Of a stretch of 64,000 nt of DNA, positions 24,153 through 38,900 are shown piece by piece. Below the pieces are notes generated by a model. The model saw only the letters and a program-made list of their open reading frames with translations. It had not been told where the DNA came from and did not search any database. This stretch comes from a virus (Duplodnaviria; Caudoviricetes): positions 1 to 64,000 of IMG/VR virus record IMGVR_UViG_2585427716_000002; one strand, given 5' to 3'. The translations under genes were made by a program, and so were the position numbers. Each line of letters starts with the position of its first letter. The stretch's first letter is position 1.

Positions 24153-24890
24153 ATGAAGAACAATGATGAGAACATTAAAACATTTGATGATGACGAGTTT
24201 ATTACCAAGTATGGCAAGCTCGTTCCCTACACTATTAAGAAAACATTCTCCCCTGGAGCGCTGCCCATGGTATTCGGTAATACAAGCCTTGATTATGATG
24301 ATTTAGTACAGATCGGGTTCATAGGTCTATGTAAAGCTAGGGATAGATTTGAACCCTCGTATGGTTATGCCTTTAATACATACGCCATACCTCTAATCCG
24401 TGGTGAGTTGCAACGAGCACTAAGGGATAACTGCAAAATTAAAATAAGTCGGAGCACCCATGACCTAAAACAAAAAATAATTAAAGCTGATATGCTTCAC
24501 GACCCGATACCTATTATCGCTACCCGTTTCAATGTTAGCGAGGACGATATTAAAAAAGCTTTGGAATACTCACCTAACTATCTCTATTTTGGCTCAATCT
24601 CCTCAAACAACAGTAATGACAGAGAAGCAACCCACGATGAAAATATATTTGACGACTTCGATTTAGAGGAGGAAGTCTCGAATCAAGAACTGCTTGAGAA
24701 TTTCTACCTAAAGGGTGGTCTCACTGGCACAGAGAAGAGCGTTTGGCATTTGTATAATCATGAAGAATTAAGTCAGACAAGAATAGCCGATTACATGGGG
24801 ATATCCCAAAGCCAAGTAAGCCGTGTTATACAAAAAGTCTATGAAAAGGCTGAGAACTTTGGTAAAAGAATTGGATTGCAGTCCACATAG
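24153..24890 (+). CDS. RNA polymerase sigma factor (SigB/F/G-like)
   Basis: DDLVQIGFIGLCKARDRFEPSYGYAFNTYAIPLIRGE; region 4 LSQTRIADYMGISQSQVSR. Confidence 0.92.
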   Translation: MKNNDENIKTFDDDEFITKYGKLVPYTIKKTFSPGALPMVFGNTSLDYDDLVQIGFIGLCKARDRFEPSYGYAFNTYAIPLIRGELQRALRDNCKIKISRSTHDLKQKIIKADMLHDPIPIIATRFNVSEDDIKKALEYSPNYLYFGSISSNNSNDREATHDENIFDDFDLEEEVSNQELLENFYLKGGLTGTEKSVWHLYNHEELSQTRIADYMGISQSQVSRVIQKVYEKAENFGKRIGLQST

Positions 24891-28300: not shown

Positions 28301-29263
28301 ATGCCCTCAAACAAGTATAACCAACTTAGAATAGAAGGTCTTCCCGACCTCCATAACAATGCCCTTTTAAAGGCGTGCCTCGAAGATTCAGACCTCTTGG
28401 CAGAATTACTACAGAGGAACAAAGATTTTATTTTCTCCATTATCACCCATTACAAGGGTAACATTGAATCCCTTAAAGAGCGCTTCAACATTTCAGAGGA
28501 AGAGTTATTGCAACACGCCTACATTGGTATACTCACAGCTCTAAGAGACTTTGATTTCACAAGAGGTGTCCGTTTTACTACTTTCGCTTATCGCCCCATC
28601 ATTTGGGAAATCAATCAATTCATGTATAACGACTCACGTTTAGTTAGGTTGAGTAGAAGTGCTGTCAACTTAGTTAAAAAAATGGAGCAGATAGAAAACC
28701 AGTTAGGTTATTTCCCTAAACCTGATGAGATGTCCAGCATTCTAGGGGTTCCTCCAAGCAAGATCGAAGAAGTTCTGAGATTTGCTAAAGATCTTACTTA
28801 TATAGACTCACTTCAAGATTTCGATCTAGAGGACTCTGAAATCGACTTTGAAAATGAGGTTGACGACAAAGTCTATGTACAAAGTCTGCTAGAGGAATCA
28901 GATTTAGATGAGTTTGAGTCTAAAGTGGCTGATCTCATCATGGATGGGCTTAACAACTCTCAGATAGCTGAGGCTCTCGGCGTTTACCCTATGACGATAA
29001 ACAGAGCAATAGAACGCATTCGCAGTAAAGTAGCAAATGACTTCAATGACCGTCGGATATCGAAATACGAAAAAGAAATTGAATTAATTGCAGAAGAAAT
29101 GGAAGAACGAAGTTGCATAATGCACATCGACGATATCAAAGACCTTTTGGATGTGTGTGGGTATACCATCGAAACCTACACCCCACGCATTCTTTACTAC
29201 ATTAGACAAAAAGCAATGATACGTGTAAATGAGAATCTAGTCGAATGTGGAAACCAGCATTAA
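28301..29263 (+). CDS. Second sigma-70-family factor with C-terminal extension
   Basis: EELLQHAYIGILTALRDFDFTRGVRFTTFAYRPIIWEI; region 3 and region 4 HTH. Confidence 0.9.
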   Translation: MPSNKYNQLRIEGLPDLHNNALLKACLEDSDLLAELLQRNKDFIFSIITHYKGNIESLKERFNISEEELLQHAYIGILTALRDFDFTRGVRFTTFAYRPIIWEINQFMYNDSRLVRLSRSAVNLVKKMEQIENQLGYFPKPDEMSSILGVPPSKIEEVLRFAKDLTYIDSLQDFDLEDSEIDFENEVDDKVYVQSLLEESDLDEFESKVADLIMDGLNNSQIAEALGVYPMTINRAIERIRSKVANDFNDRRISKYEKEIELIAEEMEERSCIMHIDDIKDLLDVCGYTIETYTPRILYYIRQKAMIRVNENLVECGNQH

Positions 29264-31450: not shown

Positions 31451-31741
31451 ATGGTAGAAACTCTCTTCGCAAGCGCTACTCTTCTATTGTTTGTTGCAAT
31501 CTTGACTGAATCAATTACAGAGGTGATTAAAAACCTCTTCCCTGAGGGGTTGGTGCAGGATAAAGTCACTTATATCCTCTCCATTGCTGTAGGTATTTTA
31601 CTCGCATTCATCTTTGACTTAGAGCCTTTTGGGTTGGAAGGCGTTGGTGTGATTGTAAGTAAGGTTCTTATGGGGATTATAGCTAGCCGTGGTGCAAACT
31701 ACGTGAACGGATTCTTGAAACGGTTTGAAATCCTACGGTAA
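31451..31741 (+). CDS. Holin-like 3-TM membrane protein
   Basis: ESITEVIK...GIIASRGANYV pattern. Confidence 0.6.
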   Translation: MVETLFASATLLLFVAILTESITEVIKNLFPEGLVQDKVTYILSIAVGILLAFIFDLEPFGLEGVGVIVSKVLMGIIASRGANYVNGFLKRFEILR

Positions 31742-31743
31742 AC

Positions 31744-31773
31744 AAAAAAGACTACCATGTCGGTAGTCTTTTT
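31744..31773. terminator. Bidirectional terminator ending the flagellin transcript
   Basis: AAAAAAGACTACC-atgtc-GGTAGTCTTTTT. Confidence 0.85.
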
Positions 31774-31784
31774 TATTATAGCTA

Positions 31785-32702
31785 TTAACGTAACAATTGA
31801 AGTACGTTTTGTGGTTGTTGGTTTGCTTGAGCAAGCATAGCTTGAGAAGCTTGAGAAAGAATGTTGTTCTTTGTGAACTCACTCATTTCTTTCGCCATGT
31901 CAACGTCACGGATACGAGACTCAGCAGCTGTCAGGTTTTCACCAGAAGCGCTCAAGTTGTTGATTGTGTGCTCAAGACGGTTTTGTACCGCACCTAATTT
32001 TGAACGTTGTTTAGAAACAGTATTGATTGCGTCATCAACTGTTTTAAGTTGAGCATTGAATCCTACAGTAGCAGTGTCAGCCGCATTATCTTTGAATTTT
32101 GTTACGTCGATGTCAGATACTGCTTGTCCAGTAAGAAGTGTCGTACCGTCTGTATCTAAAGCACCAATTGCTGTAGCTGCCATGCTTTCAATGTTGACAG
32201 AAAGCTGTTGACTGCTGTTAGCTCCGATTTGGAATGTTAATGATTTACCGCCAGCTTGCGAGAAATCGCCATTAAGAAGTTTTTTACCGTTAAATTCAGT
32301 ACGGTCGGAGATACCGTTAGCGTTTGCTCCGCCACCGATTTCTTCAACTAGAGATTTGATCTCATCTTGGATCGCTCCAAGATCTGTACCATCTTGTGTA
32401 CCTGTGTTTCCAGCTTGAACAACTAGTTCACGAACACGTTGAAGAATAGAGTGAGTTTCAGTTAATGCACCCTCAGCTGTTTGGATAAGTGAGATTCCGT
32501 CTTGAGAGTTTTTAGAAGCCATATCAAGACCTCTGATTTGTCCTCTCATTTTTTCAGAGATCGCAAGACCAGCCGCGTCATCTCCCGCACGGTTGATACG
32601 AAGACCAGAAGAAAGTTTCTCCATGTTCTTTTGTGCCGCACCGTTGTTTGCGCCTAAACGGTTTAATGTGTTAAGTGCTGCGATATTGTGGTTAATTCTC
32701 AT
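31785..32702 (-). CDS. hag: Flagellin
   Basis: MRINHNIAALNT...LSSGLRINRAGDDAAGLAISEKM and RIRDVDMAKEMSEFTKNNILSQASQAMLAQANQQPQNVLQLLR; termini near-identical to B. subtilis Hag, variable centre. Confidence 0.98.
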   Translation of the reverse strand: MRINHNIAALNTLNRLGANNGAAQKNMEKLSSGLRINRAGDDAAGLAISEKMRGQIRGLDMASKNSQDGISLIQTAEGALTETHSILQRVRELVVQAGNTGTQDGTDLGAIQDEIKSLVEEIGGGANANGISDRTEFNGKKLLNGDFSQAGGKSLTFQIGANSSQQLSVNIESMAATAIGALDTDGTTLLTGQAVSDIDVTKFKDNAADTATVGFNAQLKTVDDAINTVSKQRSKLGAVQNRLEHTINNLSASGENLTAAESRIRDVDMAKEMSEFTKNNILSQASQAMLAQANQQPQNVLQLLR

Positions 32703-32922
32703 TTTTTGTTACCTCCGTGTAATGTTTTTTGGAAACCTCTTCGATATCCTTATCTGGCGAGATTTCCGTCCGATGAATTCGAAACTCTTTTGGAGCGTCT
32801 ATAGCAATTCTCACTTGATTTTTTCTATCTTTGATCTTGAGGACCGTAATCTTAATCTCATTCCCTATTGAATCTGTTATAATGAAAGATTCTTCGTATT
32901 GTCTAGATATTACAAGTGCCAT
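32692..32922 (-). CDS. csrA: CsrA/RsmA-family translational regulator (divergent)
   Basis: MALVISRQYEESFII...IKITVL...QVRIAIDAPKEFRIHRTEI; RBS AAGGAGGAG; stop overlaps hag start. Confidence 0.88.
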   Translation of the reverse strand: MALVISRQYEESFIITDSIGNEIKITVLKIKDRKNQVRIAIDAPKEFRIHRTEISPDKDIEEVSKKHYTEVTKNEN

Positions 32923-32969
32923 GCTATTTTTCTCCTCCTTGAGCTTGTCATTCATCCCTGACAATTAAT

Positions 32970-32996
32970 ATATCGACGATGGGTATTAAATGTTTA
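32970..32996 (-). promoter_or_regulatory. SigD (sigma-28) promoter for csrA-hag
   Basis: TAAA-15bp-GTCGATAT vs consensus TAAA-N15-GCCGATAT. Confidence 0.8.
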
Positions 32997-33027
32997 TAGA
33001 TTTTCTTTAAAAAATTTTTCAACAAAT

Positions 33028-33051
33028 AAAAACCGCCCGTAAAGGCGGTTT
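33028..33051 (-). terminator. Terminator after endolysin, insulating csrA-hag
   Basis: Minus strand AAACCGCC-tttacg-GGCGGTTTTT. Confidence 0.8.
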
Positions 33052-33062
33052 AATGTCCCACT

Positions 33063-34268
33063 TTAAAACATCACATTCCATGTATTGTATCCAACAATAC
33101 CGTCTACTCCCAAGAAAGGGAATTTAGATTGGTAGTTCTTTACAGCCTTTTCTGTCGCTGCACCGAAGTCACCGTCTACACTAATCTTCAATGCTCTTTG
33201 AATCGCTTCAACGTCTTTGCCGTGTGCCCCTCTTTTTACAGGAGAGCCTGGGTATGGTCTGACAGGCTTATGTTTAAGGTACTCAGCTAGCCGAGCGTCT
33301 ACCTTTTTCATTGATGTTTTCTTTGCAGTATTGGAAGATGGTGTACTTGCACTCTTATACCCAACAAGGACTTTTTGACCAACCTGCAATTTAAGTGGAT
33401 TAATTCCTGGGTTTAACTTTTCAATGTTTGCTACTGTGGTTTTGTAGTCGACTGCTAAGTGTGAAAGTGTTGGACTATTCTTAGAGATTGTCCCATAGAT
33501 TGGACTCTTACCACTATCTGTGGTTTTACTTTCCTCCTGGATAAGTAATGTGCTTCCAATTTGAAGAGCAAGAACATCGATCTCAGGATTTAATGCTTTT
33601 AGTTTTGCCACTGTAGTTCCATACTCATTTGCAATTTTATACAGAGTATCTCCTGAAACCACCTTATGTGTCTTCCCACTTTTTACAGACGCTGTTTGTG
33701 GTTTTGCTGATTTACCGGAACACTCTTTGTATTCGGCGGCCACATCAGTTATCAGCTGGTTGTAAGTTTTACCGATATGTTTCAGACCGTTAGATGGATC
33801 AATTTTACGCTTAGGGTCTAAAGTTTCGTGACCCACAATATCACGTTTAGGGTCTAAGCCGAACTTATAGCAAAGATAAGCTAAAATCCAAACATATCGA
33901 GCATAAGATTTTGCTCCATCGATGTTCCCTCCCCAACATAACTCAACTCCGATCGCTGCGTCATTTGCGTCCGCACCAAACATTCTATTATCTGTTGTTA
34001 CATTGTAGATAACATGGTATGCTCGTTCAGGCGTTCCAAGTACCGCTGGAATGCACTCTCTGATACACTCGTCATCGACAAAAATTTGGGCACTTGCTGC
34101 AATGGTTGGTGAGTTTCGATAATAGTTAATATTACCTTTCGCTGTAGATCCTGGGTTTCCAGTGTCGTGGGCTACAAGGAATCTTACGTTTATCTTTCCT
34201 CCAGGACGTCTTTTAGTGCCTGTAGGCAATAAATCTGAAATAATATCGTATTTCATCTTAAAACTCAT
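33063..34268 (-). CDS. Endolysin: N-acetylmuramoyl-L-alanine amidase + 2 LysM + PG-binding domain
   Basis: VAHDTGNP..SA...IGVELC..IVGH..K.DP; HKVVSGDTLYKIA; DGDFGAATEKAVKNYQ..DGIVG. Confidence 0.93.
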   Translation of the reverse strand: MSFKMKYDIISDLLPTGTKRRPGGKINVRFLVAHDTGNPGSTAKGNINYYRNSPTIAASAQIFVDDECIRECIPAVLGTPERAYHVIYNVTTDNRMFGADANDAAIGVELCWGGNIDGAKSYARYVWILAYLCYKFGLDPKRDIVGHETLDPKRKIDPSNGLKHIGKTYNQLITDVAAEYKECSGKSAKPQTASVKSGKTHKVVSGDTLYKIANEYGTTVAKLKALNPEIDVLALQIGSTLLIQEESKTTDSGKSPIYGTISKNSPTLSHLAVDYKTTVANIEKLNPGINPLKLQVGQKVLVGYKSASTPSSNTAKKTSMKKVDARLAEYLKHKPVRPYPGSPVKRGAHGKDVEAIQRALKISVDGDFGAATEKAVKNYQSKFPFLGVDGIVGYNTWNVMF

Positions 34269-35069: not shown

Positions 35070-35927
35070 TTGAATTACGCTAATAGATTTGAAACACATA
35101 TGAGAGTAGAAAAAGACTTATCTGATAACACAATCTCCAACTATATGAGGGACCTTGGCAAATTTACCGACTACATAGATGTCGATCTGATAGATGTCAC
35201 CCCGGACCATGTACGAACCTTTATCTCACACCTCTCCAAAAATGGTTTAAAGCGCAACTCCATTAACCGGGCACTTTACTCACTTAAATCCTTTTATAAG
35301 TACCTCAAGGAGGTAGAAGGAGTCATACAAGCTACCCCCACTGATGGGATAAAGGTAGGTTCTCGTGAAAAATCGTTGCCTAAATTTCTCTCAAAAGAGG
35401 ATGTGTTACGTCTTTTGGAAACTGCCAGCAGAGAAGGAGTAAGAAGCCGCCTTTACGTAGAGCTTTTGTATGGATTGGGTGGCCGTGTCGCTGAGGTTGC
35501 TGCCTTACGTGTCGAAGACATAGATTTTGAAGGTAATTATATCCGTCTGAGGGGTAAAGGAAATAAAGAAAGGCATAACCCAATACACGAAAGCTGTATT
35601 CAACTTATACGGCAATATATCAAAGATCTAGGGATAACCTCAGGATTTTTATTCCCGCATAGGTTCGATAAATCAAGACATGTAACAAGGGAAGCGATAT
35701 TCCTCAATATAAAAAATATTGCTGATAAAGCCGGTATAGATAGAAACCTCGTCAGCCCTCACGTCTTCCGGCACAGTTTTGCCACACACTTGTTGGATAA
35801 TGGATGTGACATGGCCATTGTCCAAGAGTTTTTAGGGCATGAGGACATCTCAACAACTAAGATTTATGCCAAGGTTACAAGAGGAAACAAATCAAATAAT
35901 TATAAAAAATTCCACCCTCTTGCCTGA
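35070..35927 (+). CDS. XerC/XerD-family tyrosine recombinase
   Basis: GGRVAE, GKGNKER, SPHVFRHSFATHLL, LGHEDISTTKIY. Confidence 0.93.
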   Translation: MNYANRFETHMRVEKDLSDNTISNYMRDLGKFTDYIDVDLIDVTPDHVRTFISHLSKNGLKRNSINRALYSLKSFYKYLKEVEGVIQATPTDGIKVGSREKSLPKFLSKEDVLRLLETASREGVRSRLYVELLYGLGGRVAEVAALRVEDIDFEGNYIRLRGKGNKERHNPIHESCIQLIRQYIKDLGITSGFLFPHRFDKSRHVTREAIFLNIKNIADKAGIDRNLVSPHVFRHSFATHLLDNGCDMAIVQEFLGHEDISTTKIYAKVTRGNKSNNYKKFHPLA

Positions 35928-35990: not shown

Positions 35991-38900
35991 TTACATAATA
36001 TAGGCGTAAGGGTAAGCTGTTATTACTTCGATACCGGAGCTTAAATCGTTAGATATTTTTATCACAGCTATCGCTTTAAGATCAGAATTGTTACTAACCC
36101 TGATTCTGATTACGCCGGTTAATTCAGAGTATTCATATATATTAATTGTACTAACAAGATCCCCTTCGCCAAATGACTGAATTTCTACTGATCCGGTTAA
36201 TTCACTTACTTGGTTTATTGTAAGGGAGCCATAGATATCAAGAGATTCAAAGAATCGAACAGACACATGGGATGGTAAGTCACCAGTACCCCAATTACGA
36301 ACTGAAATTGAAGCACTTAATTGGCCTCCATCGATCCAAGGGTCATTCCATGCTCTGATTTCTGCGGAAGCCGCTACATCACAAGAATCTGATTTTCTGA
36401 TATCAATTAAGCCTAATTTATCTTGATACCTAGATTTATTCACAGACACAGTTGAAGGTAGACTATCTGTATATCTAATAAACCCATCGATCGACAGGTT
36501 AGAGTCCTGAGCTAACCGAACAATAATGTTACTAGGTAACTCGTGACCCATATTGACACGGACGCCGACACTAGATCCTAGGTTACCGGAAGCTATCCCT
36601 AGATAAGACATAAAATCAGATACACGTCTCACCCGCACCGACAGCGATCCGACTAAGTTTTTAAGCCCATTGTTGGGAACAGTCAACGAAGATTGAAGGT
36701 TACCTGAGAGAATAGTAACCGTAGAATACTTATCAGCACTCATTCGTAGATTTACAGTTGAGGGTAGCTCTTCTCGGTCTCCCTGTGGAACATGTATTGC
36801 AGAAACCAAGTCGTTAGAGAGGCTTCTTCGAACGACAACTTGCCCGCCTAGTAAAGATTTTTCGTATACTTTAATATACGATTTTAAGTTAGGGTTTCCT
36901 ATGTTACCTTTCCCAGGAAGATCATTTCTATAACGGACATAAACGGAAGATTGTTGATCCCCTTTACCTTCTGCCCGTACTACGATTGAACAAATAAACT
37001 GAGCACTCTCTTTTATCTCCAGTGTCCCATAGAGTTCAAAATTTCTTGTTACCCTAAAACCAGCAGTTAGGTTATCTCTAGTGTTTTCTCCGTTAGATGT
37101 TACCCGTACCGATAACTGTGAATCGAAATCTTCCCTATTCAATACATAAATACTTGAATCTTTGTTCGTCTCAGATATACTGAGATTTGAAACTAGCTGC
37201 CCTCCGTCCTGATCCGAGTCTCCCCACACCCTGACCTGTAGACTACCTTTTAGATCATTTCTGTACAGGACATAGACTTCACCTAGTTTATCCTTCTCAT
37301 TGGCTGCAATAAAGCTCGATAGATCCGTCGAACTCTTTTGTCTAATTGAAATATACCCATCTTTAAAATCGTAATGCCCACCGAATCGGGGTGTTACAGA
37401 TCCACTTAATTGAGGACGGCTTACTACAATTCGTGAAGTTATGTCTCCTGGAGCCTTGACATACATGTCTCCCGGGACATCTTCCCAAAAGTTGTACTGC
37501 TTGACCTTTACTTGAGATTTTAAATCCTTTTCTGTTGAATTCCTAATGCTCAATTCGGATAATAGGTGGCTATCGTCGATTGTGTATACAACCATGTCAT
37601 AATATTCGACTAGCAATTCAGGCCGTCTTTCGGTGTTTTCTCTAGTATAGAAGCCTTTCATGAGGCTTCCTAGCTCATTAACTGCCTTTAGCATAAAACC
37701 GAAATTCGCTTTTTTGCCGCTATGCCAATCCTTGACAAGAGGAGTTACATCAATTTCTGTGTACTTTCCGGTCGTATTGTCGAGCACATAAGTCGTAGAG
37801 AACCCTTCTTTAGCGACCCTAGGTTGAGAATCCCAGGTTACACTAAGCTCATTCCACTGGTCCATTAATTCATTTATCTGAACTGCTTGACTTACGCCTC
37901 TCCCGTCATTGTAGATACGGAGGATTGCTTTACCGATCTCTGTGTTATCCTGTGGCACTTCATTAATATCGAATCCAACAAGAGACCTAAACGTCTCAGG
38001 AAAAGGTGATTGGACCTTTCCTACATACATTTGCGTTTCGGTACCGTAATTAATCTTAGGGAGATACGATCGTACAAAAGCGTCTCTCACAGAATAAAGA
38101 GTCTTTATAACTTTTGGTCGTTCTCTCAAGTCGTACCTAGCCACCATACCGCCTTTTGGCGTCAATCTGATCATAGATTTTAGATCAGAAACTTCCTTAA
38201 TGCTAAGCTGAGAAGTTAGCCAACCAAAATAGATAGGGGTTATATCGTACTCGGCCTGTAAATGTGTTTTTAGGTTTATAAAAATTTCAGAAGGAAGCTC
38301 ACTAAACTCCTTGATACCTAGGTATGTTGGGAGTTCATTTAAGTAAGTAGGGGTTAACTCGTATTTAGCACCCATCGATGACTGGGTCGGTATTGAGATC
38401 GTTGAGAGAATATCACTTTTGGCTGGTACAGTGATGTCTCCCTTTAAGTCATCTAAGTGTATGCCTTGAATCTGATAAGTCGCTGTGACTAAAGTTCTTG
38501 TATTAACCTTAACAACACTCAGCATATCCTTAGTGGAATAAACTGTAATGTCTGACAGCATGTCGTCTTTGGCTATGCCGTCAATAGCGTACTTTATTTC
38601 CATATGCCTATTCGTTATTAGATTTACACCGACTACCGATGGCAAGTCTGCTCCGGTCTTAACTAAGACTTCCCCACCCAAATCTGATCCGCCTACCTGC
38701 TGAGAAGCGTACCTAGCAGACATCCTTATTTCTTGCAAGCTTACTGTAATGTTCGAAAGCAGGTTAGGCGAAACAACTTTCAAGGTAGACTCTAAATCCT
38801 CAACATGTAGCGGGTTAACCCCGTACCTTGACTTAAACGTTGCAATCGATGTGACGGATATACTCGAAAGCAGGTTATTGTGATTAGTTACCCTTAGGGA

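Follow-up and report, generated by a model that had tools for sequence, protein, structure and literature searches.

The Hag-FliW-CsrA switch of Bacillus subtilis is a textbook system of protein-level homeostasis which depends on exact 1:1 ratios. Here, a cassette composed of a csrA paralogue and a flagellin gene (hag) was analyzed in a 64-kb window of phage DNA (positions 1–64,000 of the IMG/VR virus record IMGVR_UViG_2585427716_000002), which is part of a 245-kb contig in a genome of 4.0 Mb. The cassette resembles the B. subtilis switch in the CsrA fold, in the RNA-binding residues, in the position of csrA directly upstream of hag, in a sigmaD-type promoter and in a hag leader which carries GGA in a hairpin loop together with GGA in the Shine-Dalgarno (SD) sequence, as that leader is described in bioRxiv 2021.05.06.443043. 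However, it differs from the B. subtilis switch in that the cassette is without fliW, the helix carrying I51 and N55 is replaced, loop insertions are present, and CsrA identity is limited to 40% over residues 3–54. The promoter is also located upstream of csrA and not between csrA and hag, and the candidate hag operator lies inside the csrA frame. A FliW-independent CsrA and a second flagellin on a mobile element would represent a natural perturbation of the Hag-FliW-CsrA circuit.

Two further groups of described systems are comparable. In Enterobacter prophages, the RNA-guided TldR acts as a repressor of host fliC, and the flagellin gene of the phage, fliCP, is equipped with a sigma28 promoter (PMC13418256; bioRxiv 2023.11.30.569447). 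The cassette shares with these prophages a phage flagellin, a flagellar sigma-factor promoter and an adjacent candidate repressor of host flagellin. Unlike TldR, which is a TnpB-derived, RNA-guided transcription factor, the regulator of the cassette is a homologue of translational repressors; no TnpB/TldR-like family was found among the 53 window open reading frames (ORFs) scanned against PHROGs, and Rfam gave no match in the window. Linkage of csrA to TldR-fliC loci has been reported in Clostridia, where no bacteriophage association was detected according to bioRxiv 2023.11.30.569447. The second group consists of RsmQ (plasmid pQBR103), CsrT (integrative and conjugative elements of Legionella) and phage ‘CsrA-like regulators’, which are likewise mobile csrA paralogues present beside a host copy. 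Phage CsrA homologues have already been catalogued, including in Table 3 of PMC7366521. RsmQ and its relatives are small RNA-controlled systems, the RsmQ paper makes no mention of Bacillus, phage, Firmicutes or flagellin, and neither flagellin linkage nor loss of the FliW interface is described for mobile CsrA/RsmA homologues in the literature passages compared. A literature search covering the main texts of open papers gave no account of a csrA-hag cassette on phages or plasmids of Bacillus, of its missing FliW interface or of the overlap between CsrA tail and hag operator; absence from print is unproven. The cassette combines two known themes, a mobile-element CsrA and prophage flagellin remodelling.

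The regulator gene and its SD sequence were located as follows.

32692–32922, minus strand: csrA paralogue, 76 amino acids (aa), ATG start
32932–32940, minus strand: strong csrA SD sequence AAGGAGGAG with GGA inside, 9 nucleotides (nt) upstream of the ATG, candidate CsrA site 2

The ORF translation of the phage CsrA is MALVISRQYEES...APKEFRIHRTEISPDKDIEEVSKKHYTEVTKNEN. A longer TTG-started frame (32692–32964) was rejected; the homologues all start with MALV. The protein matched the Pfam CsrA profile PF02599 with 53.5 bits (E-value 2.3e-14), above the curated cut-off of 27, and PHROG 9500, ‘CsrA-like regulator’, with an E-value of 6e-13. An alignment of 35 CsrA sequences revealed that L3, R7, A43, P44 and R51 were invariant and E53 nearly so. 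The phage CsrA carries L3, I5, R7, R51, E53 and I54, which correspond to RNA-binding positions of beta1 and beta5; we take these roles (beta1 L, L/V and R; beta5 equivalents of R44, E46 and I47) to be those assigned by E. coli mutagenesis. The first-pass annotation of this DNA had reported an LVISR strand, an IxRxE motif (IHRTE) and a particular C-terminus, and all three could be located, at residues 3–7, 49–53 and 54–76 (ISPDKDIEEVSKKHYTEVTKNEN), respectively. The AlphaFold2 model, built with 35 sequences as input, had a mean predicted local distance difference test (pLDDT) score of 78.5, with approximately 90 in the beta core, and consisted of strands at residues 12–16, 22–30 and 37–42 followed by a C-terminal helix at 57–73. 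DSSP was run on the monomer and left beta1 and beta5 uncalled, since both form only in the swapped dimer. The best 15 Foldseek matches in the PDB were all CsrA, RsmA or RsmE chains, the best ones with root-mean-square deviations of 1.2–1.9 Å over 52–54 residues. A PDB sequence search with the phage CsrA ranked E. coli CsrA (32.5 bits) above the FliW-bound Geobacillus CsrA 5DMB (27.8 bits) and B. subtilis CsrA 1T3O (22 bits). The product of 32692–32922 is a real but divergent CsrA-family protein for which RNA binding is predicted.

A word-indexed search yielded seven close homologues of 72–76 aa from Bacillus atrophaeus, B. licheniformis, B. paralicheniformis, B. glycinifermentans and the ‘B. 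subtilis group’, one of them on a plasmid. The exhaustive search of representatives returned 125 proteins at an E-value of 1e-3 or below and only two at 1e-10 or below; CsrA homologues were matched in 31 phage records. Five Bacillus plasmids of 200–212 kb in the plasmid collection carried a csrA of this clade. When the clade profile was searched against 91 genomes representing species of the bacterial family, the genome of the window was the only one to match (E-value ≤ 1e-8), and the clade protein is therefore rare among species representatives. The more distant CsrA matches (L004 and L043–L045) had no flagellin within 3–4 kb, and the single-protein scan of genome contigs found only a distant relative in a Fuerstiella metagenome-assembled genome, with no flagellin nearby.

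The same genome encodes a canonical locus elsewhere, with fliW (143 aa), csrA (74 aa) and hag (284 aa). The host CsrA, beside fliW and hag, reads ...HRKEIYLTIQEENNRAA... and possesses both I51 and N55, in agreement with the B. subtilis tail sequence quoted in the first-pass annotation. Only one FliW match was found in the whole genome, on contig C44 beside the host csrA; none was present on the contig of the window, and the earlier statement that the window has no fliW holds. A comparison set of fliW-csrA loci from 29 other genomes of the bacterial family showed that all 29 fliW-linked CsrAs read HRKE(I/V)Y(L/M/I)(S/T)I..(E/S)N, that is, Ile51 and Asn55, which becomes 30 of 30 with the host copy. 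The 19 chromosomal rows of the alignment are a subset of these 30, picked to limit redundancy. Lys and Glu are located at the I51 and N55 offsets of the phage CsrA, and the I51/N55 pair was found in none of the ten mobile-element clade members (the window protein, P0001–P0008 and the ORF of phage EZ-2018a). BLASTP similarity between the phage and host CsrA ends at residue 54, and the CsrAs of the clade carry insertions of four and two residues in two loops of the alignment. The claim that the tail motif used for FliW control is missing was thus borne out at the level of sequence.

These positions matter for FliW binding. According to PMC7829508 and PMC13407953, B. subtilis CsrA no longer binds FliW when it carries N55D, binding of FliW in Campylobacter jejuni is weaker with N55A or V51A, N55 is identical across all FliW-type CsrAs aligned, and C-terminal deletion abrogates FliW binding. 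CsrA-N55D still binds hag RNA and is not displaced from it by FliW (PMC6529632). It is a reasonable inference from the sequence that the host FliW cannot switch off the phage CsrA. The first-pass annotation had extended this escape to heterodimers; this part is contradicted, since a wild-type/N55D heterodimer is still inhibited by FliW in B. subtilis, where one FliW per dimer is enough (PMC6529632).

The phage CsrA could alternatively take part in the partner switch through a non-canonical FliW contact, or act as a sink for FliW. The predicted C-terminal helix (residues 57–73) is still present, and residues 59–63 matter for FliW2 binding in Helicobacter pylori, so the interface there exceeds N55 (PMC11905337). 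However, there is no similarity past residue 54, the helix is of low confidence, the 62-aa clade member ends nine residues after the RxE motif, and the frame changes in the tail peptide among relatives described below are hard to square with a conserved protein interface. We regard such participation as distinctly improbable.

The flagellin gene and the sites in front of it were located as follows.

31785–32702, minus strand: phage flagellin hag, 305 aa, with Flagellin_N (E-value 6.5e-45) and Flagellin_C (E-value 2.4e-34) domains
32712–32716, minus strand: hag SD sequence GGAGG, inside the csrA frame at codons T-E-V
32731–32767, minus strand: csrA 3' hairpin GGAAAUCUC..GAUA[AGGA]UAUC..GAGGUUUCC, a BS1-like candidate CsrA site for hag which codes for approximately residues 52–64

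The phage flagellin gene (window 31785–32702) was compared with the host hag (L001 437–1291). In the first 240 and the last approximately 200 nt, 54–60 of 60 nt per block were identical, compared to only 10–44 of 60 in the center. With these host-identical termini, the parts for export, chaperone binding and polymerisation would be host-like while the exposed part differs. This mosaic suggests that the flagellin genes of prophage and chromosome have exchanged sequence, through recombination or gene conversion. In 24 sequencing runs, at most a fraction of 0.25 of the words sampled from 31700–33100 was found, which fits hag termini common to chromosomal hag genes.

The cassette is arranged as a sigmaD-type promoter, a leader with a GGA hairpin and SD sequence, csrA and hag, just downstream of lysis genes. 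A csrA directly followed by hag was found in all eight loci of the clade, which comprise three phages or proviruses (the window, the uncultivated viral genome L042 and EZ-2018a) and five Bacillus plasmids of about 200 kb, the next gene being flagellin Hag in all five plasmids. L042, an IMG/VR contig of 124 kb, was syntenic with the window, having the same endolysin, terminator and promoter motif, followed by a 62-aa CsrA, a 384-aa flagellin and the same two downstream genes. The plasmids all belong to rep_cluster_1042 and are non-mobilizable. In two of them, L005 and L006 (NZ_CP114067 and NZ_CP014843), the cassette is located between a gene for a DnaA N-terminal-domain protein with an LXG toxin/immunity pair on one side and dnaN on the other. 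Such a different plasmid neighbourhood indicates that the cassette moves as a unit between element types.

This distribution bears on two simpler explanations. The cassette could be a decaying passenger, namely a captured chromosomal csrA-hag segment without present function in which csrA is drifting, and the degenerate EZ-2018a copy and a chromosomal relic without csrA would agree with this. Against it, nine clade proteins with 55–93% identity to the window protein share 30 invariant positions, their frames are intact, and the promoter, SD sequences and hairpins are conserved across phages and plasmids; decay is scarcely credible. The FliW-blind CsrA could also serve as a plain shut-off which ends flagellin synthesis and motility in the lysogen, excluding flagellum-dependent phages or saving cost, with the linked flagellin being incidental. 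The loss of I51/N55 fits a shut-off, as does the host hag leader with its BS1-type hairpin and its SD site, and the plasmid CsrA homologue RsmQ is reported to switch Pseudomonas from the motile to the sessile state (PMC9928087). However, an intact flagellin with a conserved SD sequence and start stands beside csrA in 8/8 loci from at least three element types, and host-like flagellin termini with a diverged center are the pattern expected of a protein that is made and assembled. We consider a plain shut-off quite improbable.

The DNA coding for the CsrA tail was found to coincide with the leader of hag. The csrA and hag frames overlap by 11 nt (32692–32702, ATGAGAATTAA), the flagellin ATG lying within the last csrA codons. 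The block CACGGAGGTAA...ATGAGAATTAA, which holds the flagellin SD sequence and start, was invariant in the five aligned cassettes. Owing to a 5-nt deletion just upstream, the csrA frame of the window and that of the B. halotolerans plasmid read through this block and end in ...KKHYTEVTKNEN. In the B. licheniformis plasmids, CsrA ends with KTNNITRR, 6 nt before hag; the L042 CsrA stops 30 nt earlier (…EVKEREVFDF), and the EZ-2018a ORF stops 21 nt before hag. The length of the clade CsrAs consequently ranges from 62 to 76 aa, the tail peptide varying by insertions and deletions. Judged from the alignment, in which 5 nt are deleted compared with the B. licheniformis plasmids, the overlap is a recent change which would give tight translational coupling.

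A hairpin with GGA in its apical loop was found within the last approximately 60 nt of csrA in all five cassettes examined and in the host hag leader. In the window, the hairpin presents GAUA[AGGA]UAUC atop a lower stem of nine pairs. The L042 hairpin has an 11-pair stem with the loop AAGGGAAG, and the EZ-2018a hairpin has the loop AAGGAC, which is the loop of the host BS1 hairpin; the stem sequences of both differ from those of the window. One stem pair appears as U-A, U-G and C-G across the window, L005 and L006 in the cassette alignment, and a GGA-loop hairpin at this 3' end arose in 13–32 of 500 dinucleotide shuffles per sequence. In the B. subtilis hag leader, the CsrA sites BS1 and BS2 comprise a GGA hairpin and an SD sequence 25–45 nt downstream (bioRxiv 2021.05.06.443043). 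The same layout is visible in the host's own hag leader.

A second chromosomal flagellin gene was observed beside uvrA on contig C44 (L008 1105–2265, minus strand), with a sigmaD-like motif, no csrA, and a GGA-loop hairpin of the L042 type with an SD sequence. Upstream of it, an in-frame peptide ...EIKEKEVFDF is similar to the C-terminal end of the clade CsrA of 62 aa, and on this basis the uvrA-side flagellin looks like a relic of the cassette that has lost csrA. Among 49 genomes of the genus, 10 carried the L042-type hairpin, most variant positions still pairing through G-U, and the reversed control pattern was found in none. The survival of this hairpin upstream of a csrA-less flagellin in 10/49 genomes argues for an RNA function. 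For the conserved tail stretch S-x-DKD-(I/V)-EE, an RNA constraint would be at least as likely as a protein function. The first-pass reading of the tail as a protein motif had to be changed accordingly in its emphasis, as the coding sequence is the hag leader and the peptide varies by frame and stop position; the approximately 22-residue tail is probably mostly a by-product of the flagellin leader RNA rather than a protein motif. The cassette illustrates how the regulatory RNA of a downstream gene can shape the C-terminal peptide of the coding sequence before it.

The elements upstream of csrA were located as follows.

32970–32996, minus strand: sigmaD-type promoter TAAA-N15-GTCGATAT, 50 nt upstream of the csrA ATG
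32945–32964, minus strand: leader hairpin UUGUCA[GGGAUGAA]UGACAA with a GGA loop, candidate CsrA site 1 of the csrA cistron

The promoter was labelled according to what we take to be the sigmaD consensus. The motif TAAA-N17-CGATAT had a single match in the 64-kb window, 0.26 being expected, and the same motif was found 46–50 nt from the ATG in four of four cassette upstream regions tested and, by eye, in L042. We also considered a general promoter used by the sigma factors of the phage itself, which is unlikely given that the motif occurs once in 64 kb. The leader GGA hairpin was the minimum-free-energy hairpin in the window, L005 and L006, such a loop being obtained in 32–38 of 500 shuffles, and the EZ-2018a leader contains UGUCA[GGA]UGACA in another sub-window. 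The first-pass annotation had proposed that the phage protein represses constitutively; a sigmaD-type promoter and a leader with a GGA hairpin and SD sequence of the kind that CsrA binds argue against this. As the gene stands behind such a promoter and such a leader, its expression is probably dependent on the flagellar regulon and self-limited. The Rfam scan of the window returned no families, and no known CsrB/RsmY-type sponge RNA was among its results.

The presence of CsrA-type sites on both cistrons, with csrA and hag on one transcript in all eight loci, could also be explained by a stoichiometric buffer. The csrA in cis would keep the extra hag mRNA repressed until export, the effect on host hag would be minor, and the two flagellins would add up or mix. 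In B. subtilis, Hag, FliW, CsrA dimer and hag mRNA occur at about 1:1:1:1 via gene order and translational coupling, and hyperaccumulation of Hag harms cell architecture (PMC6529632); a buffer would avoid toxic cytoplasmic flagellin. However, without release by FliW such a buffer would keep the extra mRNA repressed permanently, a tiny excess of CsrA already inhibits motility (PMC6529632), and the loss of the I51/N55 helix in every clade member would be unexplained. Buffering is rather unlikely in our estimation.

We tentatively favor another interpretation, in which the phage CsrA is a repressor that is blind to FliW, limits its own level and moves flagellin production from host Hag towards phage Hag; doubt still slightly outweighs confidence in it. 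The cassette would be transcribed together with the late flagellar regulon. The FliW-resistant phage CsrA would then bind the GGA hairpin and SD sites on host hag mRNA and on its own mRNA, capping its own level while keeping host flagellin translation down. Even an undetectable excess of CsrA inhibits motility in B. subtilis (PMC6529632). Ribosomes that translate the 3' end of csrA would open up the hag operator and, in the case of the window, would stop 8 nt beyond the hag ATG, so that phage flagellin might be translated in step with csrA from the shared mRNA. The phage flagellin could be exported and assembled via its host-type termini, and the filament, enriched in phage flagellin, would have an altered surface, for example in its recognition by flagellum-binding phages. 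A broader proposal is possible but doubtful, namely that phages and phage-like megaplasmids of Bacillus share a portable, self-contained cassette for flagellin replacement in which a FliW-blind CsrA silences host hag and the csrA 3' end doubles as the operator of phage hag, the csrA-less loci of 10/49 genomes being domesticated relics.

If true, the FliW-blind repressor would give temperate phages a second, mechanistically different route to rewrite the host filament, the TldR route having been described only in 2023–2026, and it would be the translational (post-transcriptional) counterpart of RNA-guided TldR-fliCP remodelling. The flagellin-replacement idea is directly testable in laboratory Bacillus.

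Several observations weigh against a FliW-blind switch from host to phage flagellin. Since a bipartite GGA site is present on phage hag as well, it is not obviously immune to the phage CsrA, and the selectivity needed for preferential repression of host hag mRNA is assumed. FliW-blindness is deduced from two residues and the missing homology past residue 54, and the C-terminal helix of the model (57–73) had a pLDDT of only 50–70. The csrA-like ORF of EZ-2018a (L003 4930–5133, minus strand) scored 24.7 bits, below the Pfam cut-off of 27, and has lost the beta1 arginine (LLLDIT for LVISRQ) while the promoter, hairpins and flagellin are retained; some cassettes may, on this example, not encode an RNA-binding CsrA. 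Overlap of the csrA stop and hag start was seen in the window-type and B. halotolerans forms only, the other gaps being 6–30 nt. The promoter motif alone was not significant (at least one match in 23 of 100 shuffles), and the same stretch also scored 9/12 as a weak sigma-70-type site. The leader hairpin passed a strict criterion in only 3/5 leaders, and individual hairpins were no more stable than shuffles (z of −1.2 to +0.7).

The features on the lysis side of the cassette were located as follows.

33063–34268: endolysin gene, ending at the terminator
33030–33051, minus strand: intrinsic terminator, 9-pair stem and T-run, which parts the lysis genes from the cassette

PHROG annotation of the 53 ORFs of the window further revealed a holin-like protein, virion structural proteins, a tyrosine recombinase, a UvsX-like recombinase, a ligase and two sigma-factor-like proteins besides the endolysin. 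A virion protein of the window had 63.6% identity to Bacillus phage EZ-2018a and 40% to Brevibacillus phage Jenst, and a megablast of window positions 36000–60000 against phages gave no match. The carrier is a large temperate Bacillus phage related to EZ-2018a and Jenst. The tyrosine recombinase/integrase gene (35070–35927, plus strand) is located between the lysis genes and large tail-fibre-like genes (1284 and 944 aa). The sigma-factor-like genes (PHROG 351; 24153–24890 and 28301–29263, plus strand) are in the early/middle phage region.

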